In this document: positions 1 to 45,695 of the stretch, one piece after another
Numbering within the stretch: position 1 is the stretch's first letter
Layout of the letters: each line of letters opens with the position of its first letter
Sequence record: MN850621.1
Source of the DNA: Escherichia phage dhabil
DNA length: 64,000 bases
Reading direction: 5' to 3' (one strand)
Translations under genes and position numbers: made by a program
The notes under the pieces: model-generated
The model's database searches: none
The model's input: only the letters and a program-made list of their open reading frames with translations
What the model was told of the DNA's origin: nothing

Positions 1-87
1 GGTATATTGGTCTGAGTCTAAACGTTCAATGGCGCGTTCAGCGAAGGCGTGCATTAAGGTTAGATAAATGGGGGTTAAAAATTTCAT
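1..87 (-). CDS. hypothetical protein, N-terminal fragment (gene continues beyond window start)
   Basis: ATG at 87 on minus strand, open frame to window edge (MKFLTPIYLTLMHAFAERAIERLDSDQYT...); not in ORF track because truncated. Confidence 0.3.
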   Translation of the reverse strand, partial: MKFLTPIYLTLMHAFAERAIERLDSDQYT

Positions 88-225
88 AGTTGTCTCTTAG
101 TTGTGGGCCGTTCCTTGGCACATTAATTCGTCCCTTTCTGCATTTACCCATTACCGCACTTGGGCTCGACCTTATTACAGGTTGGCGGGAGTCCCTCACA
201 GAATTGTGAGGTCCAGGTTGCTCCC

Positions 226-642
226 TTATGCGTAAATCGCCTTACCATAATGTTTGTACCAGGTAGGACGTTGTGCAATTTTTTCATCCAAACGGGCTTG
301 TGAAATAGCGATAGAAGCTTCGTGAGGAACATAATCACCACGGAATTCCTGAGGAATATCACTAATGTCCTGGACTGTAGTATCCTTGATATTAAAGCCA
401 CGTTTTAAACATTCAGCTATAAGCTCAATTTGACGCTTACGTAAAAATTCAAGCTTATCATAAAAGAATGTAACATGGCCTGTACCAAGGATAAAAGTAG
501 GGCTGATTTTAAAATCACGAACACGTTTACCGTTAGCAACATGCTTACGAACTGCACCGAAAACACGTGGTAATTCACGGTATTCAGCCATAAGGTGTTG
601 GTCGGCCAATTCAGATACTAAGGTAAGGTTGATACGAGTCAT
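226..642 (-). CDS. denV: endonuclease V, pyrimidine-dimer DNA glycosylase/AP lyase
   Basis: 138 aa, near-identical to T4 DenV as remembered ([26 protein letters not shown]...); SD AGGAG upstream. Confidence 0.95.
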
Positions 643-668
643 TTTAATCTCCTGTAGTTGATAGGTCT

Positions 669-697
669 ATAGTATCATGCCTACCGGAGATGTAAAC
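669..697 (-). promoter_or_regulatory. T4-type early promoter for denV (-35 GTTTAC, 17 nt spacer, -10 TACTAT)
   Basis: Minus-strand GTTTAC (692-697) and TACTAT (669-674); same cassette recurs upstream of other early ORFs. Confidence 0.5.
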
Positions 698-702
698 TGC
701 TT

Positions 703-1191
703 TTATCTATAAGCGGCCCAAGTACCTGTTTTAAAGGTGGCGATAACACGCTTGGCACGATTCGGGGTTTGCTTGTACCAACGAGACTGCGCCAGGTTAA
801 CTGCGGCGTCATCCCAACGTTTTTGTTGGAGCATACGCAGAGAGTTGGTAAATCCCGCTACACCAGCTTCACCCATTTGGAAGACCATATTAATCAATGC
901 ACAACGACGAACTTCGTCCAGCACATCATAAACCGGTTTCAATTTAGGATTGCGCATTATAGCTCTACGAGCATTTTCCACTGAACGATTAAAGAGTTGT
1001 TCAGCTTCAGCCATAGTAATACGACCATTACAAACTCGACCCATAAGCTTATCAAGTTCAGCGCGAGCAACATCTTTAGATGGGTTCTTGGTAACTAACT
1101 GGCCTATACCAATAGTCCAATAACCTTCGGTGTCTTTATAAAGATTTAAATCAAGACCTTCGTCTTGACGTAACATATCAAAAATATCCAT
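703..1191 (-). CDS. e: lysozyme (endolysin), T4 gene e homolog
   Basis: 162 aa, aligns along full length with T4 lysozyme (…[17 protein letters not shown]…[59 protein letters not shown]). Confidence 0.95.
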
Positions 1192-1195
1192 AATA

Positions 1196-1221
1196 CCTCC
1201 TGAGTATAGGAGGTATTTATA
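1196..1221 (-). promoter_or_regulatory. late promoter TATAAATA abutting an SD-sequestering hairpin for gene e
   Basis: Minus strand reads TATAAATA-cctcct-atactc-AGGAGG-tatta-ATG; the inverted repeat cctcct/aggagg contains the SD. Confidence 0.5.
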
Positions 1222-1671
1222 TCAAAAGAGCGAATCTAAAACCTTAAACATCGACGGGCCCATGACATATTCCCATTGCGGACGTTTAATCAAGGCGAAG
1301 GCATCAAATTCAGGAATCGTACGACCATCAGGGAACGTGTGGTAAGCTGTACATTTGCAATTCTTGAACTGCTCGTGTTCGACAGGCACAGTATATAAGA
1401 ACAGGTGTAGATTCTTATTGCTAGAATATTTGAACTCACCTAGGTCTTTCAGGAACGCAGGATCGTATGCAGTGAATCCAATCTCTTCTTCAGTTTCACG
1501 CATTGCTGCTTGAATAGGCTCTTCACCCGGTTCGACATGACCTTTAGGGATGTCCCATTTATGACGCATATTCTCTGGATTACGAGAACCTGTTACACGA
1601 CCCATAACCAATTCTTTATCGGCGGTCATAAACAAAATACCGGCGGATAGTTCTTTAACTTTTTTACTCAT
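1222..1671 (-). CDS. nudE: Nudix hydrolase (T4 e.1/NudE-like)
   Basis: 149 aa with Nudix box GHVEPGEEPIQAAMRETEEEIGF; position immediately downstream of e as in T4. Confidence 0.85.
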   Translation of the reverse strand: MSKKVKELSAGILFMTADKELVMGRVTGSRNPENMRHKWDIPKGHVEPGEEPIQAAMRETEEEIGFTAYDPAFLKDLGEFKYSSNKNLHLFLYTVPVEHEQFKNCKCTAYHTFPDGRTIPEFDAFALIKRPQWEYVMGPSMFKVLDSLF

Positions 1672-1900
1672 CGTCTCGTTTCCATGATTGGTTAAAAATG
1701 TCGCTCATTAAAATTTCAAGTCTATTTTCTAATGACGGACTTTCACTATCAGATATTTGGACCATATAATCAGAAATAGGTCGGAACATATCCAAGTCGC
1801 TTTCTAAATCTTCTTTGATTTTCTCTTCTGATGTTCCAGTGTCATAGGAATACAGATAAGAATCGCATGACTCAGATTTAATATAAATCGCAATACTCAT
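1664..1900 (-). CDS. hypothetical small acidic protein
   Basis: 78 aa ORF, start overlaps upstream stop (ATGA coupling), SD GAGGAA. Confidence 0.5.
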   Translation of the reverse strand: MSIAIYIKSESCDSYLYSYDTGTSEEKIKEDLESDLDMFRPISDYMVQISDSESPSLENRLEILMSDIFNQSWKRDDE

Positions 1901-2484
1901 TTACGGCATTCCTCAATAAAAGAGTTTAATGTATTTTTCTTAGTGATATCGTCATATACCTTTTTAACTTTAGAAATACGAAAAGGTACTTCAATAACTG
2001 CAGTCCATAAAAATGATGCGATAAGTCCTAAGATAGCCGCAGACATCGCTGAAGCAAATAGCGTAATAGGCAGGTCATTATCCGTTGTCAGGAAAAACCC
2101 TAGGAGTGGGAAAAATAATATCCCCATCCAAACATAGAACCTAGAACTCACCAATTTGTCGTATTCATCACTCCATGTACGGAAGCCGTATTTTTTGCTA
2201 TAACAAATCAATGGGTCCGGCGTCTGTTCTTTATGGGGTTCCGGTTGCCAACCATTTACGATATAGCCCATTTTATATTCCTCAATTAAAAGTTGTTTCA
2301 TTTCAGCAGTACATCCTGACCAATCTACTGTACTGGCTGAAATTCCTTCATCAGCATCATCAATATTTCGCCAGGACTTTTTAATAATCATATTCTCACC
2401 ATTTGGGATAATGATTCCGGCATTTTCAGACCGACGGATGAAGTTTACATCAACACCCATGCAACCAGGTTCATAAAGGGCCAT
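1897..2484 (-). CDS. hypothetical membrane protein with C-terminal FIxECR motif
   Basis: 195 aa; hydrophobic segment VWMGILFFPLLGFFL…AILGLIASFLWTAVI; C-terminus …NTLNSFIEECRK. Confidence 0.55.
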   Translation of the reverse strand: MALYEPGCMGVDVNFIRRSENAGIIIPNGENMIIKKSWRNIDDADEGISASTVDWSGCTAEMKQLLIEEYKMGYIVNGWQPEPHKEQTPDPLICYSKKYGFRTWSDEYDKLVSSRFYVWMGILFFPLLGFFLTTDNDLPITLFASAMSAAILGLIASFLWTAVIEVPFRISKVKKVYDDITKKNTLNSFIEECRK

Positions 2485-3170
2485 TACCAGCCCTCCATAG
2501 GGAATTCCAGATATACTTGAGCATTAACGCGGATTTCATTTGTAATCTTTTTAACACGGTCGGTATTACGAGACACACGACCAAACCAGCGCCATCCGTT
2601 ACTTACTGCACGGGAACCTGTATGCCATGTCTGCCAATCAAACTGGAGCAATGTACGGTCAGGAGCATCCCACTTGGTTAATTCATTAGACTCAATTTTT
2701 TCCAGAACTTCTTTATGCCACTGGCGATAGATAAGTTCGCCATCAGGAATCTGGCTAAATTGTGCAGTTCCGGTTGCAAAATAAGTAGGACACACATCAG
2801 CGTTAACAAGACCAAGAATATGTTCAGAATGGTATCGAGGGTTATCATAATCAGGTTGCCCTGCAGTAATAAAGTGTTGACCAACCGGAATATCCGGGCG
2901 TGGTACATCATCATGGTGATAACCTGGGATAGCAGGATACCAACCAGGCATCAGCATATGAACCCGAGAATCAAATACAACCTGGTCGGTGTTCCAATCA
3001 TCCGGCAGACTCATTATAAAGCTACGAGTAATAGGGCCACCATTATCAAAAGCGAAAGCCAATGAGCTGTTGAAGAACATAGTTTCGTTTTTGATTTTAT
3101 CGTTAGAAATTTTACCAGCGAAACCGCCTACTGCACGAGCTTGAGAATTAAAAGTTTTTGGGCTGTTCAT
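2484..3170 (-). CDS. hypothetical protein
   Basis: 228 aa ORF with SD TGAGGAAAATATT-ATG; no family recognised from sequence. Confidence 0.6.
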   Translation of the reverse strand: MNSPKTFNSQARAVGGFAGKISNDKIKNETMFFNSSLAFAFDNGGPITRSFIMSLPDDWNTDQVVFDSRVHMLMPGWYPAIPGYHHDDVPRPDIPVGQHFITAGQPDYDNPRYHSEHILGLVNADVCPTYFATGTAQFSQIPDGELIYRQWHKEVLEKIESNELTKWDAPDRTLLQFDWQTWHTGSRAVSNGWRWFGRVSRNTDRVKKITNEIRVNAQVYLEFPMEGW

Positions 3171-3180
3171 AATATTTTCC

Positions 3181-3411
3181 TCAGAAGCAAGTATTAACTT
3201 TACCAGTTGTGCTTACACATGTGTTACCGAGCTGAACACCTAAAGTACCATTAGGATTCATATGGAGATTATTACCGATCTTAACCGATGTACCATCTTT
3301 ACTGACAACGATTGAGGATTCAACTTGTGTTTCGTCTCCAACATCAACAATAAAAGGAACTGCAGCTAAAGCAACCAAGCTCAGGGCTAAAACACTCATG
3401 ATGGCTTTCAT
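3181..3411 (-). CDS. small secreted/periplasmic protein (signal peptide)
   Basis: Start taken at internal ATG after GGAG SD (MKAIMSVLALSLVALAAVPFIV…); conserved leader cassette upstream. Confidence 0.5.
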   Translation of the reverse strand: MKAIMSVLALSLVALAAVPFIVDVGDETQVESSIVVSKDGTSVKIGNNLHMNPNGTLGVQLGNTCVSTTGKVNTCF

Positions 3412-3476
3412 TTTATTCTCCAATTCACTCATTTGTTTTGATAGGTCTATAATAACATATCTTACGAGAATGTATA

Positions 3477-3689
3477 TTACTTTTTGTTGAAAAAGTACAT
3501 TTTACCTTTAGGGGATAAGGATACACGAAGTGCATTACCGATACCAACCGAACATTTAACCAGGTCAGCAGATTTCAATTCACCAAATGCTTGACGAAGG
3601 TCACCGTCACGAGTGTTAACCATCAGACATTTAGCACCAGCTGCACGAACTTCGTTTAACATGTTGATTGCTTGGTTAGAAAGTTTCAT
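3477..3689 (-). CDS. hypothetical small protein
   Basis: Start at ATG 6 nt after GGAG in the conserved leader (MKLSNQAINMLNEVRAAGAK…); the track ORF extends further 5' into the leader. Confidence 0.45.
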   Translation of the reverse strand: MKLSNQAINMLNEVRAAGAKCLMVNTRDGDLRQAFGELKSADLVKCSVGIGNALRVSLSPKGKMYFFNKK

Positions 3690-3720
3690 TTTATTCTCCA
3701 TTTCACTCTGTTGTTTTGAT

Positions 3721-3755
3721 AGGTCTATAGTATCACACCTATAGACCTTGTACAC
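3721..3755 (-). promoter_or_regulatory. early promoter with perfect 10-bp stem-loop (PeSL-like cassette)
   Basis: Minus-strand -35 GTGTAC (3750-3755), -10 TACTAT (3727-3732); inverted repeat aggtctatag (3721-3730) / ctatagacct (3739-3748). Confidence 0.55.
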
Positions 3756-3767
3756 TGTTTTATGCAA

Positions 3768-4727
3768 TTATTTTTCGAAAGGACGAATTAAATGTTGATT
3801 ACGCTTAAACCGGTTGATGTAGTCACTTTCACCTAGGGTCCTATACATATTCACTACAGCTTGGTAGTTTTCCCAGGCATACTCACGGAACCAACCTGAA
3901 GTGATTGAGGTGCACACTTTCTCAAGAGCCATATAGAAACTTGTGGCCGCTGGGATATTAAAGTCATTAGGAACCTGCGAACGCTCTAGAGCAAGTACAC
4001 ATGCTTCTTCATAAACCCCTGCCAGTTTAATAGCTTCAGGCAAAGCTTCAAACTTCTCACGAGAGGTCATGACTTCAGAACCATCTTTCATATAAAAGGT
4101 ATACGCTGGGCGTCCGGCTAATGCCACAGCTTCATGAATAGAGTCGTGGTCTAATGTATAGATGGTATCATTAAAGAACGATGATTTGTTTACATCTAAT
4201 TTAGGATGAGAATAGCTCAACGTTTCTTTCTGACGTTGCAGCATGATTTCTTGGAGCTCTTCATTCAAGGTTACACCTTTATTACGAAGGTATTTGATGT
4301 GGGACATCGTCTTCAAAAAGAAAGGGTTGTTCTTCAAATAACGATGGCTCATTTTGATGGCCAGACAGATATCAGGCGTGGCCCAATAGAAACCCGTCAT
4401 CCGATCTTTCTTAATATGTGTTTTAGCATAATTCAGAAGGCGGTAGCTTGAGGTGAAATCCTCATCTTGGAGTTCGCCGGTAATTTCACGTACGTTAGTC
4501 AAGGCGCGGACGATATAAGCTTCAAAATAGGTTTCTTTACCGTTGTGCATGCATTTAAAAGCCTGGACGTCAGGGTTGTCTACGTGTACATGGGCGCCAA
4601 ACATCTGTGCTTTAAAATTATTCCATGACCCCTGGTCGGCAATAAAATCCCAATCAGAATTTTCGATATACTTACTTTCAATCAGACCAGCGTGGTGCAG
4701 TGCACGAGAACCAATAACTAGCATCAT
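3768..4727 (-). CDS. hypothetical protein (319 aa)
   Basis: Long ORF with SD GAGGAAAATATT-ATG; no confident family assignment. Confidence 0.65.
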   Translation of the reverse strand: MMLVIGSRALHHAGLIESKYIENSDWDFIADQGSWNNFKAQMFGAHVHVDNPDVQAFKCMHNGKETYFEAYIVRALTNVREITGELQDEDFTSSYRLLNYAKTHIKKDRMTGFYWATPDICLAIKMSHRYLKNNPFFLKTMSHIKYLRNKGVTLNEELQEIMLQRQKETLSYSHPKLDVNKSSFFNDTIYTLDHDSIHEAVALAGRPAYTFYMKDGSEVMTSREKFEALPEAIKLAGVYEEACVLALERSQVPNDFNIPAATSFYMALEKVCTSITSGWFREYAWENYQAVVNMYRTLGESDYINRFKRNQHLIRPFEK

Positions 4728-4740
4728 AATATTTTCCTCA

Positions 4741-4908
4741 TTAATAAAGACGAGTTACTTCATATTTACCCAGTTCAGATTTTTTTGCTTCAATACGCGT
4801 TGCGGCTAGATTAGCAGCCTCTAGTGAAGAAAATTGGACCACTTGGGAAGTATTCTGCCTTACGCCACCTTGTGGGTGAGTAACAAAAACAATAAGAACA
4901 TTATACAT
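4741..4908 (-). CDS. hypothetical small protein (55 aa)
   Basis: Below the ORF-track size cutoff; found by manual translation (MYNVLIVFVTHPQGGVRQNTSQVVQFSSLEAANLAATRIEAKKSELGKYEVTRLY), SD TGAGGAAAATATT. Confidence 0.35.
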   Translation of the reverse strand: MYNVLIVFVTHPQGGVRQNTSQVVQFSSLEAANLAATRIEAKKSELGKYEVTRLY

Positions 4909-4929
4909 AATATTTTCCTCAGAGTAAAC

Positions 4930-5169
4930 TTAAATTTCAGCAACGTAATCGTTATGCAATTCCCACATATCATCAGAATTATTCTTAATGATAGGAATTA
5001 TCTCATTAGAGATTTCTTCGGCATAAGGGTCGTTGATACAGTGAGCGTCTTCAAAACGAACACCATAATCAGACTTCTTATAGGCAAAGCCATAAATCTT
5101 TTTAAACTTGGCACGACTAATGCGTACCGGCTCATCAGACTTATCAGACAGTGGAGAGTAATACCACAT
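4930..5169 (-). CDS. hypothetical small protein
   Basis: 79 aa ORF with SD AGGAG 6 nt upstream of ATG. Confidence 0.45.
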   Translation of the reverse strand: MWYYSPLSDKSDEPVRISRAKFKKIYGFAYKKSDYGVRFEDAHCINDPYAEEISNEIIPIIKNNSDDMWELHNDYVAEI

Positions 5170-5213
5170 AATGTTCTCCTCATGTTTGTGTAAGGTAATA
5201 GTAACACAAGTTT

Positions 5214-5564
5214 TTAGAGTTGTACATCACTTCTGCAATATTCTAAAAATAATTTATCGCTGTCTACTGTATCCCAACGCCGCCAAGATGGATTCCAGAC
5301 CAGAGCGTTGTCACCACAATCATTGAGCTTAAAATGGTCGTAGTACATGGCTATGTGTCTAGTCTCGTCACCGGAGAACCCTAGTATAGGCTCGCCGTGG
5401 GTATGATACATATGATGGTGCATTGAGAGGTCGCACTTATAAAACATCTCACGTTTACCACGAACGAACAAGAAAGCTTGCCCATTCATATAGAATTCTT
5501 TATCTGTTTTCAAAAGATATTTGAATACTGAATCTTTGTGCATAAGTCCTCCTACCACATCCAT
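5214..5564 (-). CDS. hypothetical His/Cys-rich protein
   Basis: 116 aa ORF (…CDLSMHHHMYHTHGEP…); alternative start at 5543 has the stronger SD (AGGAGGA). Confidence 0.5.
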   Translation of the reverse strand: MDVVGGLMHKDSVFKYLLKTDKEFYMNGQAFLFVRGKREMFYKCDLSMHHHMYHTHGEPILGFSGDETRHIAMYYDHFKLNDCGDNALVWNPSWRRWDTVDSDKLFLEYCRSDVQL

Positions 5565-5573
5565 GTGGCTAAA

Positions 5574-5801
5574 TTATTTTCCTAACGAAATACGAGTAGG
5601 TTTTTTACCAAAGTATTCTTCATAAGAACCATCTAAACGACCTGCTTTAGACCGGCAATATGAATCATACTTTTTATAATAGGCCATCTCAGTATTATAA
5701 CGTGGGTGTCTATCAGCCATAATAATACTTAACGGCCAACCTTTGGCATAATCGCGAAGACCGTTTATTTTATGAATGTATCTTTTCTTTAATTTTAGCA
5801 T
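5574..5801 (-). CDS. hypothetical small protein
   Basis: 75 aa ORF in a tightly packed minus-strand operon. Confidence 0.4.
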   Translation of the reverse strand: MLKLKKRYIHKINGLRDYAKGWPLSIIMADRHPRYNTEMAYYKKYDSYCRSKAGRLDGSYEEYFGKKPTRISLGK

Positions 5802-6019
5802 GAGCTTGGGTACCAGATTTTACCATCGGAGCGAGCAACGAAGGTACGACCAGCTTCTTCACCATAACAAGAGCTATTCAGCCAATCTTCAAGACGAACT
5901 TCACCATCATAATCATCAAGCTCAACACCAAAATCCTGAGCAGAAGCCATATCTTTTACTTTCTTATACAGCGCAGCCAGTTCAAGAGCTGCTTTTTCTA
6001 ATTCATTAATATTAGACAT
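5795..6019 (-). CDS. small acidic protein, paralog 5 of the C-terminal W-x-x-SS-C family
   Basis: 74 aa, ends …KIWYPSSC; member of the tandem array. Confidence 0.55.
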   Translation of the reverse strand: MSNINELEKAALELAALYKKVKDMASAQDFGVELDDYDGEVRLEDWLNSSCYGEEAGRTFVARSDGKIWYPSSC

Positions 6020-6028
6020 TTTATCACC

Positions 6029-6241
6029 TTAGCAAGACATAGAGGATGTAAACCAGAAACCTTCACCATCTGGGATACCGTAATCATCACGGACCCATTC
6101 GTAATCATCATATTCCGGATTCTTTGGGGAAATGTATTGTCCACGGCCGGAAACATGGAACTCTTCACCTGTTTCGTCAGCCACGGACTGACCTTTACGT
6201 ACTAATTCACGGATTTGTTTTTCAATTTCATCAATAGTCAT
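6029..6241 (-). CDS. small acidic protein, paralog 4 of the C-terminal W-x-x-SS-x-x-C family
   Basis: 70 aa, ends …GFWFTSSMSC; preceded by ggtaataaaATG-type RBS. Confidence 0.55.
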   Translation of the reverse strand: MTIDEIEKQIRELVRKGQSVADETGEEFHVSGRGQYISPKNPEYDDYEWVRDDYGIPDGEGFWFTSSMSC

Positions 6242-6250
6242 TTTATTACC

Positions 6251-6448
6251 TTAGCATTCGTAAGAGGAGGACACCCAAGAGGTACCACTAATAGTAATAC
6301 AACCGTTATAAAGCGTTATATGTCGTTCTAAGTCACGAGCACCATCAATATAGATATCAGCTTCTTCGCGTTCTTCTTTACAAATTTGAATAACGTTTTC
6401 AATTGCCGCAGCGGCAGTTCGGATTGCACAATCTAATTCACGAGACAT
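6251..6448 (-). CDS. small acidic protein, paralog 3 of the C-terminal W-x-x-SS-x-x-C family
   Basis: 65 aa, ends …TSWVSSSYEC. Confidence 0.55.
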   Translation of the reverse strand: MSRELDCAIRTAAAAIENVIQICKEEREEADIYIDGARDLERHITLYNGCITISGTSWVSSSYEC

Positions 6449-6457
6449 AATATTTCC

Positions 6458-6739
6458 TTAACATTCAGAAGAAGAGGACACCCAACCGCCAGTTGCGAGG
6501 TCAGTTGTATAGTCATGAGTATTAACAATAGCCCATTCAGGATGACCATCTTCTTCCCAATGGGCAAGGTCAGCTTTCAAGGCGCCAGGAGAATAATAGT
6601 CACCGCCCATACCGCGAGCAGGGTATATATTAAAATGAGTCTCATATTTGTCTGCAATTTCCTCGGCACGACGAATAGCTTCATGAATTTCTTTTACTGC
6701 GGCCAGAAGCTCTGGATGGTTATGATTATCATTCATCAT
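6458..6739 (-). CDS. small acidic protein, paralog 2 of the C-terminal W-x-x-SS-x-x-C family
   Basis: 93 aa, ends …GGWVSSSSEC. Confidence 0.55.
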   Translation of the reverse strand: MMNDNHNHPELLAAVKEIHEAIRRAEEIADKYETHFNIYPARGMGGDYYSPGALKADLAHWEEDGHPEWAIVNTHDYTTDLATGGWVSSSSEC

Positions 6740-6748
6740 AGCTTTTCC

Positions 6749-7039
6749 TTAGCACATTGCCGAAGAGGAGACCCAGGCACCAACTGTAACGACGCCATTT
6801 TCAACTTCACCGCCATTGTTTTCAATTTCATCTTTAAACCACTGGGAGCATTCATAACCAACAGGGTAGTAGGTACGTCCTGAGCCATAATCACCTGTTC
6901 CGAATTGAATACCGTACTTATCGGCAATAGCTTCACATTTGGATTCGATGATATCTACTTTACCGAGCAGGGCATAGATAGCTTTTTCTGCAGATTTCTC
7001 GTCGTTGTATTCAGGGATTTCAATTTCAATTTTATTCAT
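6749..7039 (-). CDS. small acidic protein, paralog 1 of the C-terminal W-x-x-SS-x-x-C family
   Basis: 96 aa, ends …GAWVSSSAMC. Confidence 0.55.
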   Translation of the reverse strand: MNKIEIEIPEYNDEKSAEKAIYALLGKVDIIESKCEAIADKYGIQFGTGDYGSGRTYYPVGYECSQWFKDEIENNGGEVENGVVTVGAWVSSSAMC

Positions 7040-7389
7040 GATTTACATTCCTTAATAAAGGTTTCAAGGTCATTACGTTTGGTTTGTTTTACATACTCAT
7101 TATAATTAGCCATCTCTAAAGCATATCTCTTACGGATGGGAGCATTCAAAGCATTTGTATGGCAAATATCATACACGAGAGGGATAAAATAAGCCACGAC
7201 AGCCGGAGCAATTATCATATAGAAACCCATCTCAATAGGCATGACTCCTTCGATTGCAGCCATAACTGTGGTCATTACCAGACCAACCAGACCGCCGAGC
7301 ATACCTGTGACAATTCCCGTGAATAAGGAAATAGCAATATCATATTCAGCCAATTGATAAACATGCGATGAAAGACTAGGCCGTTCCAT
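7036..7389 (-). CDS. hypothetical membrane protein with C-terminal FIxECK motif
   Basis: Start at internal ATG (MERPSLS…) preceded by SD AGAGG; multiple hydrophobic helices; C-terminus …NDLETFIKECKS. Confidence 0.5.
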   Translation of the reverse strand: MERPSLSSHVYQLAEYDIAISLFTGIVTGMLGGLVGLVMTTVMAAIEGVMPIEMGFYMIIAPAVVAYFIPLVYDICHTNALNAPIRKRYALEMANYNEYVKQTKRNDLETFIKECKS

Positions 7390-7918
7390 TTTGGACCTCT
7401 TTAGCGTATTCACGGCATTCAGCAATAAAGCGATTAAGCTTCCGTTGTTGTTTACGACTTTCTAATGTGTACTCAGCAGTTAAGATACCAAGCTCGGCTT
7501 TATCATAATTTTTAATATCAGTGTAAGATGGTCGACGGTCGACCATTCCAAATACATCACCATTTTCTAAAGCCACATAGCATACTAAATGGTAATCATC
7601 GTCTGCCATATTAAGAAGCACGCAATCATTGCTCTCATTTAAAGAATATACTGAATAACGTAGTCCAGCGAATTCCACTCGTTGAATAGCCAGATTTACG
7701 TCAATAATTTCCAAAGCATCTTCAAAAGAAAGGTCTTCAGCTAAAGCAAAAATAAAAGGTAATTTGGTAGTATCGCCACGGCTAGATGTTCTGCTTAAGA
7801 AATCGTTTGAATAGCCTAGGTCTTGGCGAATTCTATAAAGAACTGAATTGGTTTCATGGGAAAGACCACTATTTTTAAACCAATCAATATTTGATATAAG
7901 GTTATCATATAAACTCAT
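7376..7918 (-). CDS. hypothetical protein with FIAECR motif near C-terminus
   Basis: 180 aa ORF, SD GGAGGAGAGGAGAATATT-ATG. Confidence 0.55.
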   Translation of the reverse strand: MSLYDNLISNIDWFKNSGLSHETNSVLYRIRQDLGYSNDFLSRTSSRGDTTKLPFIFALAEDLSFEDALEIIDVNLAIQRVEFAGLRYSVYSLNESNDCVLLNMADDDYHLVCYVALENGDVFGMVDRRPSYTDIKNYDKAELGILTAEYTLESRKQQRKLNRFIAECREYAKEVQNGTA

Positions 7919-7931
7919 AATATTCTCCTCT

Positions 7932-7949
7932 CCTCCAAATAGGGAGACC
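7932..7949 (-). terminator. hairpin (gggagac-UUCG-gucuccc), likely minus-strand terminator/attenuator
   Basis: 7-bp GC-rich stem with UUCG tetraloop, short U tract on minus strand. Confidence 0.4.
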
Positions 7950-7966
7950 GAAGTCTCCCGGTAATA

Positions 7967-8560
7967 TTACTTAAGTGAATTAATGTAGTCTTCGATATCG
8001 GCTGAAGTCGTATCCATTCCAACTTGTGGGCCTTTAAACGTTTCTACACGCAGCAGGGTATCTTCAATATCAATCTTAGTCAATGCAGCGATTTCAACCA
8101 CATCATCGGCAGTAGCAATACCAAGGGCAGCCATATTACGAGTTTCACGAATGTACTCAAGCTTAACCGCTAGTTCCTGGCGAGAGTCATCAAGTTCCTT
8201 GACCTTCAGTTTAATTTCATTACGCATTTCGATATAATCGTCTGCTTTCTTACGAAGTTGATTAGCTGTACGACGATAAAGGAGGCCAAGTTTAGCATGC
8301 ACCTGGACATCGGCGCCTTCTTTAATCAGTTTACGAATTTCACGCTCTTTTGAAGCGGCGAGTTGGTCTTTTTCATTCGCTAACTCGCGAATACGTTTTT
8401 CTTCATTCACAGACTTAACATGAGCAGTCTGGAGTTCAGTAATTTTATCAATCAGGGTAGAAGCAGCTTTAGTATACTGGTCTTCGATTGACAGGTTCTG
8501 AGTCATTGCGGTACCCAGTTTAGAACGGATGAATTCAACGATTTTCTTTAAAGTGTTCAT
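7967..8560 (-). CDS. coiled-coil protein, possibly PspA/IM30-like
   Basis: Start at internal ATG ([10 protein letters not shown]…) with SD GAAGGA; predicted long heptad-rich helices; family call is tentative. Confidence 0.5.
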
Positions 8561-8597
8561 AGTATTTCCTTCAGTCGGTTGATATTTTGTAATCCAT

Positions 8598-8633
8598 GAG
8601 GACATTATACCCTGTCCTCTGAGGGTTGTAAAC
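8598..8633 (-). promoter_or_regulatory. strong sigma70-type early promoter with stem-loop over the -10
   Basis: Minus-strand -35 GTTTAC (8628-8633), -10 TATAAT (8604-8609), 18 nt spacer; inverted repeat gaggac/gtcctc flanks the -10. Confidence 0.55.
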
Positions 8634-8636
8634 ATT

Positions 8637-9035
8637 TTATTTCATTTTTGCTAGGCAAATTTCATTGGCTTCCCATTGAGCTTGCTTAATAATAGCTTTG
8701 GATACAGGAACCCTTTGACCATAAGTTTTTGACGTTGAGAGAACAATATATTTGTTTGCCTCATTATGCCAACCTAGTGATTTTTCACCATGAGTACCTT
8801 TAACCACAGCTGACACCTCAACAGAGCAACCACCATCAGAAATCTTGGTTTCTACAATCCATTCATTTCTCTCGACAGCTTCAATTTCCGATCTCCTTTT
8901 TTCTTCATACATGGCGGCCCAATCAGTTTTTGCCAAGCTGAAAGTAAGAGCTTTCTCTAATTCTTTGGCAGCTTTTTGTTGTTCAGGCGTTAATGAATTA
9001 TACAACTCTTGCATTTCTTTATCTTCGATATTCAT
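8637..9035 (-). CDS. hypothetical protein
   Basis: 132 aa ORF in the early accessory operon. Confidence 0.5.
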
Positions 9036-9092
9036 TATGCTCTCCTCAAATTACGGGCTCATAATATCTCAATCATGAGCCCGTGTAAACAA

Positions 9093-9356
9093 TTATTTCA
9101 TATTATTGAAATAATCTTCCGCATCAAAATCGTTATCGTGATAAACTTTGGTAGACAATTTGACGTACCCTTCGGCAGCAAACATATTAACCACAACCTT
9201 TACGGTATACCACTGTCCATCGTCATTACCCATTACTGCGTAGGTTTCAAATATGGGATGGTCATCACCTATAACCTTAATATCGTTAACAGTAGCACCA
9301 AATTCTTCAGGAACGCATTTCATAAAGAAATTAAACAATTCACCATAATTATCCAT
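9093..9356 (-). CDS. hypothetical small acidic protein
   Basis: Start at ATG 9356 after SD AAGGAG; the track start at 9371 is a GTG inside the conserved leader. Confidence 0.5.
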   Translation of the reverse strand: MDNYGELFNFFMKCVPEEFGATVNDIKVIGDDHPIFETYAVMGNDDGQWYTVKVVVNMFAAEGYVKLSTKVYHDNDFDAEDYFNNMK

Positions 9357-9391
9357 TTTACTCTCCTTCACTCTGTTGTTTTGATAGGTCT

Positions 9392-9420
9392 ATAGTATCA
9401 CGTTTAAAGGAGGTGTAAAC
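9392..9420 (-). promoter_or_regulatory. T4-type early promoter cassette (-35 GTTTAC, -10 TACTAT)
   Basis: Minus-strand GTTTAC (9415-9420), 17 nt spacer, TACTAT (9392-9397), followed by the conserved leader agacctatcaaaacaacagagtgaa. Confidence 0.55.
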
Positions 9421-9458
9421 AACTTTGTGAAATTATTTTTAGTTTAAACCCCCTAAAA

Positions 9459-9474
9459 GGAGACCGAAGTCTCC
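9459..9474 (-). terminator. rho-independent terminator (ggagac-UUCG-gucucc + U tract)
   Basis: Hairpin immediately 3' of the 9480..10103 gene, U tract on minus strand. Confidence 0.5.
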
Positions 9475-9479
9475 TTTCA

Positions 9480-10103
9480 TTATTTACGAGTCTTTTCGAA
9501 CTGAGCTGCGTCACCGGCCAGTCGGCGTGCTTGACGAAGTTTGTTGTCAATTTCTTCGCGCATAGGCTGGGTGTACTTAAGGCCTTCAACCGTCAGATAG
9601 AGACGATAAAGGTCTGGTGTGTCCAGGTTGTTAATGTGTTGACCGTTACGAAGAACATTGAATTCACGAACAAGGTGTTTAGTTTCGGATTCTATTTCAG
9701 AAACCAAAGAAGCCAGTTGGTTATATTTTTTAACAATAGTGCTGGTGTCGAACTTGATTTTAGGTTTAGGAGCTTCTTTTACAGGCTCTGCTTTAGGTGC
9801 TGCCGCAGGTTTAGGTGGTGCAACTTTGGTTGGGGCTGCAGGTTTAGCAACAGGAGCTTTAGCTGGTTTAGCAGGTTTAGTAGCGCCACCGGCTACGATA
9901 TCTTTAAAAGCTTTGGAAGCTTTGTAATATTCTTTCTGGTTACTAGTATCAAAACCATACATATCATAAACGTTTTTAAAGAACTCGGTAGTGGTTTTAG
10001 TCCCGGAAATTTTATCATAAGCAGCTTGCCACATATCTTTAGTCATGCGCACGCTGGCTTCAGTCAGAACGCTTTCGTTCAAAAATTCATTGTAAGTTTT
10101 CAT
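9480..10103 (-). CDS. internal head protein (IP) with capsid-targeting sequence and Ala/Pro/Lys-rich linker
   Basis: N-terminus MKTYNEFLNESVLTEA matches the T4 IP capsid-targeting sequence and protease cleavage motif (LTE|A); late promoter upstream. Confidence 0.6.
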   Translation of the reverse strand: MKTYNEFLNESVLTEASVRMTKDMWQAAYDKISGTKTTTEFFKNVYDMYGFDTSNQKEYYKASKAFKDIVAGGATKPAKPAKAPVAKPAAPTKVAPPKPAAAPKAEPVKEAPKPKIKFDTSTIVKKYNQLASLVSEIESETKHLVREFNVLRNGQHINNLDTPDLYRLYLTVEGLKYTQPMREEIDNKLRQARRLAGDAAQFEKTRK

Positions 10104-10131
10104 TATTGTTTCCTGTGTTAATTAACTTATC

Positions 10132-10139
10132 TATTTATA
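10132..10139 (-). promoter_or_regulatory. late promoter TATAAATA (minus strand) for the IP gene
   Basis: Exact TATAAATA ~30 nt upstream of ATG at 10103. Confidence 0.5.
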
Positions 10140-10140
10140 C

Positions 10141-10168
10141 AAAAAAGGCCCAACCTTTCGGAAGGGCC
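10141..10168 (-). terminator. rho-independent terminator at the 3' end of the tRNA/stable-RNA transcription unit
   Basis: Hairpin ggcccaaccuuucggaagggcc followed by U6 on minus strand. Confidence 0.65.
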
Positions 10169-10338
10169 TTTAACCTAGGGTAACCTTGTCGGGGTTCCAC
10201 CTGCTAGGCAAGTGTTCGGTGCGCCGTTTCAGCTGTGAGATAAGGGACTTTAAGAGGAACTCATGTACGCCTTAAAGTCGGGTCTTATTCAGGGAACTTC
10301 AGTCCGACGACTTACCGGTAGCGACCCGGTTTCTTGTT
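10169..10338 (-). ncRNA. possible small stable RNA(s) downstream of the tRNAs
   Basis: 170 nt with no ORF, relatively GC-rich, between tRNA-Arg and the terminator; inferred by analogy to T4 species 1/2 RNAs. Confidence 0.25.
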
Positions 10339-10414
10339 TGGTCGAGACAGTAGGGATCGAACCTACGACCCAGGACTTAGAAGGTCCTTGCTCTTCCTTC
10401 TGAGCTATGCCTCG
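10339..10414 (-). tRNA. tRNA-Arg (anticodon UCU)
   Basis: Manually folded cloverleaf: acceptor cgaggca/tgtctcg, anticodon stem aggac/gtcct, loop cuUCUaa, T-arm gtagg-ttcgatc-cctac, encoded CCA. Confidence 0.8.
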
Positions 10415-10418
10415 TATT

Positions 10419-10493
10419 TGGCGGACATGCATGGATTCGAACCATGGACCAATTGATTAACAGTCAACTGCTCTACCACTGAGCTACACATCC
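10419..10493 (-). tRNA. tRNA-Asn (anticodon GUU)
   Basis: Cloverleaf: acceptor ggatgtg, D-arm gctc-agtggta-gagc, anticodon loop cuGUUaa, T-loop ttcgaat, encoded CCA. Confidence 0.75.
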
Positions 10494-10497
10494 AAAT

Positions 10498-10571
10498 TGG
10501 TGGCCCTGGGTGGAATCGAACCACCATCCAGCGATTATGAGTCGCTCGCTTGACCGTCCAGCTACAGGGCC
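10498..10571 (-). tRNA. tRNA with CAU anticodon (Met, or Ile if lysidine-modified as in T4)
   Basis: Cloverleaf: acceptor ggccctg, anticodon stem agcga/tcgct, loop cuCAUaa, T-arm ggtgg-ttcgatt-ccacc, encoded CCA. Confidence 0.8.
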
Positions 10572-10656
10572 TTAATTCTATTATGAAAGGCTCTTTGAGG
10601 GAAGAACCTTTGGTAATAGAGGGTATTAATGATAGAGTAATAATATCACATAATTC

Positions 10657-10941
10657 TTAAAGCATATTAATATAGTCAAGTTTAATAGAAGCAATCTTCA
10701 AAGGGTTTTTAAAGATGTCGTATTCGACCAATCCATTTTCAGTTGCGGTATAAAAAGTAAAGTTAACAGAATTATAGCGATGGCTGTTAACTTTGAGTTT
10801 AACATCGCTTGAACTACGGCCAATATTAACCTGTTGAACATCAAGCACGGCATCTTTGCCGTAATTTCGAATCAACAACTCGGCTGCAACCTGATCGGAT
10901 TTATAGCCATTCTCTGGATTAGTAACCTTAACGTATAACAT
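10657..10941 (-). CDS. hypothetical protein
   Basis: 94 aa ORF, SD GAGGG, start overlaps upstream stop (TAAATG). Confidence 0.5.
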   Translation of the reverse strand: MLYVKVTNPENGYKSDQVAAELLIRNYGKDAVLDVQQVNIGRSSSDVKLKVNSHRYNSVNFTFYTATENGLVEYDIFKNPLKIASIKLDYINML

Positions 10942-11322
10942 TTAACCCTCGTCTACAATAGTGTGGGTATTGGCATTGACAATCTGCCACCAGTCAAAAC
11001 GATTGGAACCGTAACAAGGCTTATTCTCGTTTTCTTTAATGATATCGCGCAGTTCATCTTCAGTCGCGGCCTTTGCGATTAAGTCAGCATAACCGCCACG
11101 AGGATAATAGTTATCACCGGCAAAGAGCAAAAAGTTTGTTTTGATATTCTTGAATTCTTCAAGAGTAATAACTGTTCCACCCGGTTGAACAATATCTACA
11201 TAACTATATCCTAATTTCTGTGCTTCATTTACCGCTTCAAGCAGGGTGTCATGCGCCCACCCAATTTGGCAATCTGGTTTTTCAGATGGATTTGCTTGAT
11301 AATCCGCATACACTTTATACAT
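10942..11322 (-). CDS. hypothetical protein
   Basis: Start at internal ATG (MYKVYADYQ…) preceded by SD AGGTGAG. Confidence 0.5.
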   Translation of the reverse strand: MYKVYADYQANPSEKPDCQIGWAHDTLLEAVNEAQKLGYSYVDIVQPGGTVITLEEFKNIKTNFLLFAGDNYYPRGGYADLIAKAATEDELRDIIKENENKPCYGSNRFDWWQIVNANTHTIVDEG

Positions 11323-11323
11323 T

Positions 11324-11509
11324 TTACTCACCTTTAGAGATTTTATCCATAACGAAAGAGATTGAACCAATTAAGAATGCCACTACTAAAGAGATTATAT
11401 TCTCGGAAGTTGTAAGCAAATCCAACATGAATCCTGCAAACATACTAAAGCCAAAAGCAGTAACGGCGGCCAGTGCAGTAACATTTCTAATTAATTCACA
11501 ACGTTTCAT
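11324..11509 (-). CDS. small membrane protein (two predicted TM helices)
   Basis: Start after GGAG in the conserved leader (MKRCELIRNVTALAAVTAFGFSMFAGFMLDLL…). Confidence 0.5.
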   Translation of the reverse strand: MKRCELIRNVTALAAVTAFGFSMFAGFMLDLLTTSENIISLVVAFLIGSISFVMDKISKGE

Positions 11510-11545
11510 TTTATTCTCCAATCACTCATTTGTTTTGATAGGGCT

Positions 11546-11574
11546 ATAGTATCATCACTAGAGCCCGTTGTAAA
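11546..11574 (-). promoter_or_regulatory. early promoter cassette with imperfect stem-loop (PeSL-like)
   Basis: Minus-strand -35 TTTACA (11569-11574), 17 nt, -10 TACTAT (11546-11551); inverted repeat gggctctag/ctatagccc. Confidence 0.5.
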
Positions 11575-11579
11575 TAACT

Positions 11580-11858
11580 TTAAAGTGCTTTTTTCAAAAT
11601 ATCAAAGTGCTTGGTGGCGATGTAAACGGTTTTCATTACAGAAGATTCTTGAGCCGGGGAAATAACAATGCTCCCACCGTCTTTTTTAGCATGGTAACCG
11701 TCGCCCAGATAAACAGTACCTTTAAGTTCATCACCATTAAGACCGATAACCGGTTTACCTTCACGGCCTTTGTTTAGGGCTATAACTTCACTCATAACAC
11801 TGGCTTCAGTGATAGGAGCCACTTTTTGAGATTTACTAAATTCTTGATAAGTTTTCAT
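11580..11858 (-). CDS. internal head protein (IP) paralog with capsid-targeting sequence
   Basis: MKTYQEFSKSQKVAPITEA… (CTS with ITE|A cleavage motif); start at second in-frame ATG of the conserved leader. Confidence 0.55.
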   Translation of the reverse strand: MKTYQEFSKSQKVAPITEASVMSEVIALNKGREGKPVIGLNGDELKGTVYLGDGYHAKKDGGSIVISPAQESSVMKTVYIATKHFDILKKAL

Positions 11859-11896
11859 TTTGATTTCCATTTGGTTAGTTTGTTTTTGATAGGCCT

Positions 11897-11925
11897 ATAG
11901 TATCATCACTAAAGCCCTTTGTAAA
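11897..11925 (-). promoter_or_regulatory. early promoter cassette (PeSL-like)
   Basis: Minus-strand -35 TTTACA (11920-11925), 17 nt, -10 TACTAT (11897-11902). Confidence 0.5.
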
Positions 11926-11936
11926 ACATTTTTAAA

Positions 11937-12820
<884 letters not shown>

Positions 12821-16224: not shown

Positions 16225-16827
16225 ATGCTCTTCTCATTTTTCGATCCTATCGATTACGAATCAAAAACAGTCAAGCCGGATTCGGGCTCATTAACAAATG
16301 CCGATGTATTGAGCGTGCCGATGACTGATATATTTAGAAATTATAAAGAATATTTTGATAAAGTGGCTAAAAATTATACACTAAAGACTTATTATATCAA
16401 TGGGGCCCCTCGTCCAGAAGAATTGGCCCATCTTCTTTATGGCAATGTCCAATTATATTGGGTTCTACTTATGTGCAACAATATATATGACCCTTATTAT
16501 GGATGGATTACCGGGCAAGAAGCAGCATATCAAGCGGCAATCCAAAGATATTCTACCGACGGCGGAAACCAGGTCCTTTACCATGTAAACGAAAAAGGTG
16601 AGAAATTCTGGAATCTTGTCAACACACCGGAAAATCCGTATACTTGGTATGATAAAGGCGATACAGAAAAACGTTATCCTCAATACGAAGGTCCATTAGC
16701 CGCAGTAGATATTTACGAGGATGCCATTCGTAAAAATGAATATAAGCGCGAAATAAAGATTATTGACCCTAATGATATTGAGTCTTTTATTTCTGCCCTT
16801 ATTCGTGAAATGGAGAAAGCCCTCTAA
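16225..16827 (+). CDS. 53: baseplate wedge protein gp53
   Basis: 200 aa, high identity to T4 gp53 (MLFSFFDPIDYE…YINGAPRPEELA…QLYWVLLMCN…DPYYGWIT). Confidence 0.9.
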   Translation: MLFSFFDPIDYESKTVKPDSGSLTNADVLSVPMTDIFRNYKEYFDKVAKNYTLKTYYINGAPRPEELAHLLYGNVQLYWVLLMCNNIYDPYYGWITGQEAAYQAAIQRYSTDGGNQVLYHVNEKGEKFWNLVNTPENPYTWYDKGDTEKRYPQYEGPLAAVDIYEDAIRKNEYKREIKIIDPNDIESFISALIREMEKAL

Positions 16828-45666: not shown

Positions 45667-45695
45667 GGGAGACTTCGGTCTCCCATTCTTGTTTC
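45667..45695 (+). terminator. rho-independent terminator after gene 23 (gggagac-UUCG-gucuccc + U-rich tract)
   Basis: 7-bp stem, UUCG tetraloop, followed by attcttgtttc. Confidence 0.7.

Follow-up and report, generated by a model that had tools for sequence, protein, structure and literature searches.

Bacteriophage T4 is among the best-studied viruses, yet its genes e.2 to e.5 and their neighbours remain 'hypothetical proteins'. These open reading frames (ORFs) lie between lysozyme e/nudE and e.6, and their families (PF26896 and phrog_2203 for e.2, phrog_2330 for e.3, phrog_2604 for e.4 and phrog_2607 for e.5) are catalogued separately, as 'hypothetical' or 'membrane protein'. In this study we analysed a stretch of 64,000 nucleotides (nt) from Escherichia phage dhabil (MN850621.1), called the window throughout, in which genes of this cluster share a C-terminal peptide, called the tail. 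This one nine-residue peptide, with four anchor residues, links at least ten 'hypothetical' families, T4 e.2 to e.5 included.

Shared C-terminal docking peptides are known from the clamp-binding tails of T4 replication and late-transcription proteins and from the FtsZ C-terminal peptide. Translationally coupled overlapping genes, with an ATGA overlap and the Shine-Dalgarno (SD) sequence inside the upstream ORF, are common in phage operons. In the hyperplastic regions of T4-type phages, promoter-early stem-loop (PeSL) cassettes mediate modular shuffling and are described as non-coding promoter/terminator hairpins (Arbiol et al. 2010, PMC2839356; Comeau et al. 2014, PMC4122927).

The tail in the e.6-to-lysozyme e cluster

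Three genes of the window, and probably a fourth, encode the tail (aa, amino acids; TM, transmembrane):

1897-2484, minus strand: e.2 homolog, matched over residues 32-195; phrog_2203, with PF26896 (Phage_T4_Y06M) in close homologs
7036-7389, minus strand: e.3 ortholog, phrog_2330; 117 aa, two predicted TM helices, a charged helix and the tail ...LETFIKECKS, stop
7376-7918, minus strand: protein in the e.5 position, phrog_8788; 180 aa, soluble, no TM helix; ends ...LNRFIAECREYAKEVQNGTA, stop
5214-5543, minus strand: fourth, probable carrier; soluble 109-aa protein, phrog_9796; ends ...DKLFLEYCRSDVQL, stop (also written ...LFLEYCRSDVQL, stop)

The first three C-termini, ...KKNTLNSFIEECRK (1897-2484), ...KRNDLETFIKECKS (7036-7389) and ...QRKLNRFIAECREYAKEVQNGTA (7376-7918), each up to the stop codon, lie where an earlier note on this DNA had placed them. 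That note described one motif, K-[KR]-N-x-L-x-x-F-I-x-E-C-[KR], in three otherwise different proteins. The core L-x-x-F-I-x-E-C-[KR] is common to all three, but only e.2 and e.3 have the K-[KR]-N prefix in register. Its statement that two of the three are membrane proteins agrees with prediction: e.2 and e.3 each have two predicted hydrophobic helices and the e.5-type protein has none. In the six frames of the window, FI.EC[KR] occurs at these three sites only, and L..FI.EC[KR] would be expected from composition 2.4e-4 times in the window proteome. The 5214-5543 protein is probably a fourth carrier with a weaker variant, F-L-E-Y-C-R (5232-5249); no start codon overlaps its end, and the next start lies 46-47 nt past the stop. 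A shuffle test of pairwise tail identity did not discriminate within the window, since chance alone gives 6-7 of 10 matches, and it is the evidence across genomes that rules chance out.

This evidence comes from 23 loci around e.6, taken from viral contigs. On their coding strand, the pattern [FWY][IVL]..C[RK] matched 132 times, 120 of these within 16 residues of a stop, compared to 30 matches, 11 near a stop, on the opposite strand. In seven representative genomes, the motif was present within the last 22 residues (the definition of a carrier in this test) in 24 of the 86 ORFs between e.6 and lysozyme e vs. 3 of 268 elsewhere (Fisher p=1.8e-13). The three carriers outside the interval were one antisense ORF inside a gp5-like gene and two thymidine kinases. 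The tail is a non-random feature of the e.6-to-e cluster. Two kinds of candidate carrier were rejected as chance matches: the thymidine kinase ends (YVSLCRK...) and a 67-aa ORF at 18081-18284 (minus; end FFITTCRVN, stop), which is antisense in the gp5-like baseplate lysozyme gene at 16827-18569 (plus).

A search across T4-like phages, proposed in the earlier note, found the tail in at least seven groups of enterobacterial T-even phages: in phiE142 (Mosigvirus), Enterobacter CIP9-like phages, Pectobacterium PM2 (six or seven carriers in this phage alone), Klebsiella Marfa, Klebsiella KPV15, and T4-like and JS98-like phages. The tail is not confined to the three genes of the earlier note but is a feature of the whole e.2-e.5 cluster, T4 included. 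T4 e.3 ends ...MKEFVIDCRKIK, stop; T4 e.5 ends ...LEKFVKECREYVKAITIPSK, stop (core ...LEKFVKECREYV...); and T4 e.4 ends ...FVKESRCKSQS, stop, with the Cys shifted. There was no carrier in T4 0-50 kb, nor in the equivalent region of RB49 (Krischvirus). Homologs of e.2 were present in 652 phage records, every one of them of enterobacterial T-even type.

With Escherichia phage dhaeg and CLB_P2 the window region shares 98% identity, with phage JS98 95%; the window is that of a JS98-like T4-type phage of the genus Dhakavirus. All genes of interest are on the minus strand, in the order e.8, e.6, tail-bearing genes, nudE, lysozyme e and denV. The same order upstream of nudE/lysozyme e, on the same strand, is found in the window, JS98, dhaeg, T4 and metagenomic contigs (e.2 position). 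In profile searches, the 1897-2484 protein matched phrog_2203 (E=1.2e-70 over residues 32-195), and its close homologs are all annotated, in precomputed form, with PF26896 (Phage_T4_Y06M). Its layout is an N-terminal soluble domain, two predicted transmembrane helices, a charged helix and the tail ...LNSFIEECRK, stop. The 7036-7389 protein and T4 e.3 match the same family, phrog_2330 (E=2.7e-46 and E=2.9e-57 respectively), and both have two hydrophobic helices. The best family for the 7376-7918 protein is phrog_8788 (E=3.5e-115); phrog_2607, the T4 e.5 family, matches it partially (E=0.009), and both it and T4 e.5 are weak matches to phrog_13418. It has the traits of the e.5 type, being directly downstream of e.6, soluble, about 180-240 aa long and ending ...F[IV]xECREY[AV]K.... 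It stands in the T4 e.5 position, and its apparent kinship to the T4 e.5 family is weak. Gene e.4 is absent from the window. Sequence searches of the Protein Data Bank with the three family profiles gave nothing below E=0.2, the three window families had no match in NCBIfam, and the three window proteins had none in a Pfam profile search.

Clustered by BLAST after removal of the tails, the carriers span at least 10 clusters or PHROG families, membrane and soluble, none with known function. They comprise e.3, which has two helices; e.2, with an N-terminal domain before its two helices; e.4, again two-helical, in which the Cys is replaced or shifted; soluble proteins, namely three clusters of e.5 type and families of about 100 aa; and several two-helix orphans. 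Besides e.2, e.3, e.4 and e.5, about half a dozen orphan families carry the tail. Profile-profile comparison of the three window families aligned only 13-25 columns, those of the tails. 'Otherwise different' was therefore roughly right, except that e.2 and e.3 have the same layout and are maybe distant paralogs.

Conservation of the tail and its overlap with the next start

Codons were compared in 60 different DNA versions of the motif, a count that includes the two chance matches at thymidine kinase ends. Cys was encoded by TGT in 32 and TGC in 28. All six Arg codons were used (CGT 18, AGA 18, AGG 11, CGC 6, CGA 4 and CGG 1). Phe was encoded by TTT in 43 and TTC in 11, the remaining six versions having Trp (4) or Tyr (2), and the next position was mostly Ile (ATT, ATC or ATA), with Val in 13 and Leu in 3. 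This variety of synonymous and first-base changes, together with the conservative swaps at the anchors, indicates that selection acts on the amino acids.

The tail is the most conserved part of the carrier proteins. Word-indexed homolog searches reached Dhakavirus-level relatives only, and the distant e.2 proteins came from an exhaustive profile search, on metagenomic contigs that end just upstream of e.2. These distant homologs were found mainly via the N-terminal domain (E=1e-44 to 4e-4), and all of them end [FW]-I-x-x-C-R. In an alignment of 17 e.2 sequences with 18-46% identity, the only invariant columns are the I, C and R of the tail. That these three residues are invariant while the rest of the protein has diverged beyond recognition points to ongoing purifying selection, and not inertia. 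Taken with the codon data, the sequence comparison demonstrates purifying selection on the tail at the amino-acid level.

In 88 distinct tails, the positions -3, 0, +1 and +4 are hydrophobic (L/F/I, F/W, I/V and C respectively), +5 is Arg, and the preceding dozen residues are rich in Lys and Glu. The tail is, by this pattern, predicted to be a one-sided hydrophobic patch ending a charged helix. A coiled coil was rejected, the hydrophobic periodicity stopping at position -3 with none upstream. A prohead-protease site (I-x-E) was also rejected, as Glu is missing in many carriers (FIKGCR, FIKQCR, FIKNCR).

The same codons can serve the next gene, as the following features illustrate:

1903-1929, minus strand: e.2 tail codons, L-N-S-F-I-E-E-C-R; also the 3' boundary of the internal module swapped relative to the QL01-like phage L013
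1898-1914, minus strand: start region of the next gene (1664-1900); SD GAGGA at 1910-1914 from two Glu codons, 9 nt before ATG 1898-1900
7042-7068, minus strand: e.3 tail codons, L-E-T-F-I-K-E-C-K; invariant among orthologs 52-59% identical overall
7037-7053, minus strand: start region of the next gene (6749-7039); SD AAGGA at 7049-7053 from Lys-Glu codons, 9 nt before ATG 7037-7039
7412-7438, minus strand: e.5-type tail codons, L-N-R-F-I-A-E-C-R; outside the next gene's ribosome-binding site (RBS)

The stop codon and the next ATG overlap as ATGA behind both e.2 (1897-1900) and e.3 (7036-7039), and because of this overlap the tail codons double as the next gene's SD region. The SD-forming middle codons are GAG GAA in e.2 and AAG GAA in e.3. 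In the e.5-type gene, the SD of e.3 (AAAGAGG, 7396-7402) comes after the motif, and the two genes overlap by 14 nt (7376-7389). Coincidence of motif and RBS in two of the three cases, as stated in the earlier note, was thus found in e.2 and e.3.

Among 94 distinct gene ends, the next SD is inside the six motif codons in 60 and after the motif in 25, among them seven with the start 13-47 nt past the stop and e.5-type genes with the motif 10-31 nt upstream of the next start. Another seven ends have no recognisable SD, and two have no start within 60 nt. With the SD inside the motif, the middle pair of residues reads K-E, E-E, K-G or R-S, or else a purine-rich codon follows an Arg encoded by AGG/AGA; it is the SD in these codons that explains the purine-rich K-E, E-E and K-G. 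Where the SD is outside, the middle residues vary freely (E-Y, K-S, K-H, K-Y, D-Q, A-K). The influence of the RBS is on the middle pair of positions and on what follows the Arg, not on the anchors. The shared start region also creates peptide likeness beside the motif, K-E-V-Q/R-N in e.5 and e.4 ends being derived from AARGAGGTTCRWAATG.

The motif does not, then, always overlap a downstream RBS, a point on which the earlier note had suggested a check, and it is neither restricted to ends with an embedded RBS nor unconserved as protein, since the anchors persist without an overlapping start. The suspicion that constraint acts on both RNA and protein was borne out: the SD is so often inside the motif, and the anchors F, I/V, C and R are kept through free synonymous change. 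RNA folding of the three junctions was no better than in shuffled controls (z-scores 0.33, 0.61 and -0.52). No Rfam family was found at the motif sites; within window 1-12000 the only hits were three tRNAs (10342-10571).

Crossovers at gene ends and explanations of the tail

Four independent junctions between related phages lie on the tail or on its adjacent start region (an e.4 indel, an e.2 deletion, an e.2 module swap and an e.3 body swap). Two further features are needed here:

7387-7402, minus strand: e.3 start region AAAGAGGTCCAAAATG; junction where dhaeg's e.4-type gene is absent from the window
7131-7389, minus strand: e.3 body (N-terminus and both membrane helices); swapped, divergent module compared to L013

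Phage dhaeg has an e.4 gene between the e.5-type gene and e.3, which the window and JS98 lack. In the window and JS98 the e.5-type end (...YAKEVQNGTA) is a hybrid that combines the e.5 end (...YAKGVQNANVISAK) and the e.4 end (...FIKEVRNGTA) of dhaeg, and the indel junction is in the repeated AARGRGGTYCRWAATG start region. The T4-like phage L022 has no e.2; its e.3 ends ...FVIDCRKLK, stop, the e.3 body being joined to the e.2 end by a crossover within TG(C/T) AGG AAA, the Cys-Arg-Lys codons. The e.2 genes of the window and L013 are 90-100% identical to about nt 225 and about 40% identical over the membrane module (about 1921-2259), and 97-100% identity resumes exactly at TTTATTGAGGAATGCCGTAAATGA, the Phe codon. 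In the same pair of phages, e.3 is divergent from the ATG as far as about 7131, whereas identity is 97-100% over its last ~30 codons and the gene downstream; the swapped body is bounded by the start region on one side and the C-terminal helix on the other. The tail sequence is repeated from one gene end to the next, and at the sequence level these cases show that homologous recombination has crossed over on the tails to yield in-frame deletion, insertion or swap of whole genes or of variable membrane modules.

In a metagenomic protein of 106 aa, P0081, the N-terminus of an e.4 (MSKPSLYLPSEP...) is fused to the tail and second membrane helix of e.2, so that it is one more recombinant of the tail-bearing paralogs. 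The membrane modules at 1921-2259 and 7131-7389 (both minus) are about 40% identical between phages whose flanks are 90-100% identical. Modules of this kind, hypervariable or swapped between a constant N-terminal domain and a constant tail, suggest that the part in the membrane or facing the periplasm is under diversifying selection.

The explanation that we favour, with modest confidence, is that the tail is a portable cytoplasmic docking helix which is selected as protein and doubles as SD and crossover site. The motif would form the conserved core of a short C-terminal helix on the cytoplasmic side, with the pattern hydrophobic-x-x-[F/W]-[I/V]-x-x-C-R, basic residues after it and 1-15 residues between it and the stop codon. 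The hydrophobic L/F/I/C face of this amphipathic helix would be the contact surface, and the peptide would connect exchangeable heads, either membrane modules of two helices or soluble domains, to a common partner or to each other. Docking is what we infer; selection on the protein is shown by the sequence comparisons. An interaction or degradation tag, as the earlier note had proposed, would fit both the amino-acid conservation and the amphipathic helical pattern. In the AlphaFold2 (AF2) model of e.2, residues 140-194 (second membrane helix and tail) form one long helix, at modest confidence.

Several observations weigh against docking as the explanation. The Cys is not indispensable in every carrier, because e.4-type proteins (ends FIKEVR, FVKESRC and FIKNVR) have lost or shifted it. 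BLASTP aligns e.2 with e.3 (E=2e-5), weak cross-family PHROG matches exist among e.2, e.3, e.4 and several orphans, and the membrane carriers may simply have inherited the tail as paralogs. Gene conversion among cluster genes could homogenise the tails and inflate the apparent conservation within one genome. The AF2 models of e.2 and the e.5-type protein (predicted local distance difference test scores of 58 and 40 respectively) are too poor for fold searches. Moreover, the loci analysed are dominated by few genera.

A broader version of the docking idea, which we put forward only tentatively, sees the tail as a portable C-terminal signal by which rapidly diversifying, recombining heads are attached to a single fixed hub, of the host or of the phage. 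New head-tail combinations would then arise by in-frame shuffling at the tail, and the e.6-to-nudE cluster would, just as tentatively, be a combinatorial effector array of constant tail and variable heads, shaped by an arms race.

We consider it unlikely that the tail is a relic of common ancestry, that is, the slowest-evolving remnant, possibly gene-converted and without shared present function, of one small membrane protein from which the carriers arose by tandem duplication and fusion. The C-terminal half of e.2, e.3, e.4 and several orphans do have the same two helices, charged helix and tail; because of this layout and the weak cross-family matches, e.2, e.3 and e.4 may be old paralogs. 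The e.3 and e.4 types also begin alike (K-P-S-K / L-Y-L-P-S-K-P), and L022 and P0081 document recombination among paralogs. However, the soluble carriers (phrog_9796, 32323, 20096 and 22510, of about 100 aa, and the three e.5-type clusters) have no similarity to the membrane carriers outside the tail. An inert remnant would not keep I, C and R invariant amid divergence beyond recognition, for which ongoing purifying selection is needed, and gene conversion cannot account for conservation across genera with different codons.

The tail could also serve in regulation or localisation: as a signal for degradation by a host protease that limits how long early proteins last, as an amphipathic helix on the membrane surface, or as the cytoplasmic regulatory tail of holin-like two-helix proteins encoded beside the endolysin gene. 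Class II holins, late proteins that function in lysis, have two TM helices and a charged cytoplasmic C-terminus and are encoded with the endolysin, and the carrier layout resembles theirs. Small two-helix membrane proteins with a charged C-terminus, encoded close to lysozyme e, make up most of the carriers, and the C-terminal place, the amphipathic pattern and the basic residues that follow are consistent with such a role. The e.3 layout in particular fits a class II holin, but its sole sequence link, to the holin family phrog_9407, is insignificant (E=0.02), and soluble proteins have the same tail. The hydrophobic face, of four residues only, is short for membrane targeting, and the ends CRK, CKS and CREY... 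resemble, to our knowledge, no host degradation tag. Nor do the genes form an obvious late lysis cassette. They lie behind T4-early-type promoter matches (upstream of e.6 and at 4928-4900; consensus scan only), because of which the tail-bearing genes of the e.2-e.5 cluster probably belong to early transcripts; the scan gave 38 matches in the region vs. 30 expected from shuffles, i.e. near expectation. On balance, we regard this kind of role as improbable.

It is quite improbable that the tail is maintained as a recombination linker, common gene ends being favoured for in-frame cassette shuffling as a coding counterpart of PeSL elements. The four junctions and P0081 speak for it, and the recombination-prone linker that the earlier note had suggested is supported in so far as the tail is used as a crossover point; the junctions do not establish recombination as the reason for its conservation, because codons differ across genera. 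Recombination needs nucleotide identity, whereas across genera the amino acids are conserved and the codons divergent. Crossovers fall on any conserved island beside divergent DNA, so the junctions are to be expected from conservation and do not prove its cause, and second-order selection for evolvability is weak compared to direct selection on the protein. The promoter and stem-loop of a PeSL were not found at the junctions, which are inside coding sequence or RBS and have no hairpin, the only promoter-like match being one of 9/12 (7067-7038).

The codon data essentially exclude that the peptide is a by-product of the coupled gene's initiation region (U-rich stretch, SD, spacer and ATG) with irrelevant amino acids: the embedded SD in 60 of 94 ends, the dominance of purine-rich middle codons (AAG GAA, GAG GAA, AAA GGA, AGG/AGA for Arg) and the likeness of e.5 and e.4 ends beside the motif would suit it, but the anchors are kept through CGN vs. 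AGR, TGT vs. TGC at about 1:1, TTT/TTC, ATT/ATC/ATA and replacement of F by W and I by V, the motif is retained in the 25 ends with the SD downstream, and no RNA folding signal or Rfam family is present.

Neighbouring elements and comparison with known systems

Directly downstream of e.3, a second tandem family has its own C-terminal Cys motif. Five adjacent ORFs at 5795-7039 on the minus strand (5795-6019, 6029-6241, 6251-6448, 6458-6739 and 6749-7039) all end W-x-x-S-S-(x-x)-C-stop (...IWYPSSC, ...FWFTSSMSC, ...SWVSSSYEC, ...GGWVSSSSEC and ...GAWVSSSAMC respectively). The W-x-x-S-S family is also present in phiE142, CIP9-like phages and PM2 (L027, L028 and L031), and not in T4. The hairpin GGAGAC-UUCG-GUCUCC occurs in three identical copies vs. 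0.01 expected, at 7943-7958 (minus), 9459-9474 (minus) and 45668-45683 (plus); the first is in the e.6/e.5 spacer, which is 100% identical in the window and L013. We take these hairpins to resemble the stable C(UUCG)G hairpins of T4 intergenic regions. In the window, lysozyme e (703-1191) comes straight after denV (226-642). The internal-protein genes ipII/ipIII are absent between them, as in dhaeg, while they are located there in T4 and beside e in JS98.

In the T4 reference (L003, 3492-3961), a frameshift in a run of A (A5 for A6) cuts the annotated e.2 short at 102 aa, and an extra G further on compensates for it. The 160 nt annotated as 'intergenic' before nudE still hold the rest of e.2, including ...LNNFITECRKLK, stop, together with the start region of nudE; in other T4-like phages e.2 is intact, at 162 aa.

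The genes of the window are members or positional equivalents of T4 e.2-e.5 in the same order and orientation, and T4 e.3, e.4 and e.5 end in the same tail. By contrast, the e.5-type protein of the window belongs to a different PHROG (8788) from T4 e.5, to which it is weakly linked. The literature searched on e.2-e.5, hyperplastic regions and T4 functional genomics contained no mention of these genes or of the motif, and no description of a tail common to the e.2-e.5 families, or of its triple role, was found in it; it was mostly without subscription journals. The tail is a concrete handle on the 'dark matter' of T4, not a new principle. A constant tail with a hypervariable membrane module in near-identical phages hints at diversifying selection, which would bear on host range, superinfection exclusion and counter-defence.

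Like coupled gene pairs, e.2 and e.3 overlap their next genes as ATGA and provide the SD from their tail codons, and coupling is putative in most carriers; coupling alone, however, does not predict conserved Phe, Ile, Cys and Arg from varying codons. The likeness to docking peptides is that of a short, hydrophobic/aromatic-centred extreme C-terminus on unrelated proteins, after a flexible or charged linker. The tail differs in its invariant Cys-Arg, matches none of those motifs and is mostly on membrane proteins; the mechanism would be comparable by analogy only.

The PeSL reports (PMC2839356, PMC4122927) describe a comparable situation, in which short conserved boundary repeats in a hyperplastic region are crossover points for indels or replacements of small accessory genes between close relatives. 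The gene families and shuffling at non-coding PeSL boundaries were known already, and the shared coding tail with a triple role is, by the literature searched, apparently new. Unlike a PeSL, the tail repeat is a coding end plus RBS, conserved as protein rather than DNA, and because of this the exchanges are in frame and can swap protein parts. One gene end is protein motif, RBS and crossover point at once, allowing in-frame exchange of genes or membrane modules, as a coding-level counterpart of the PeSL.

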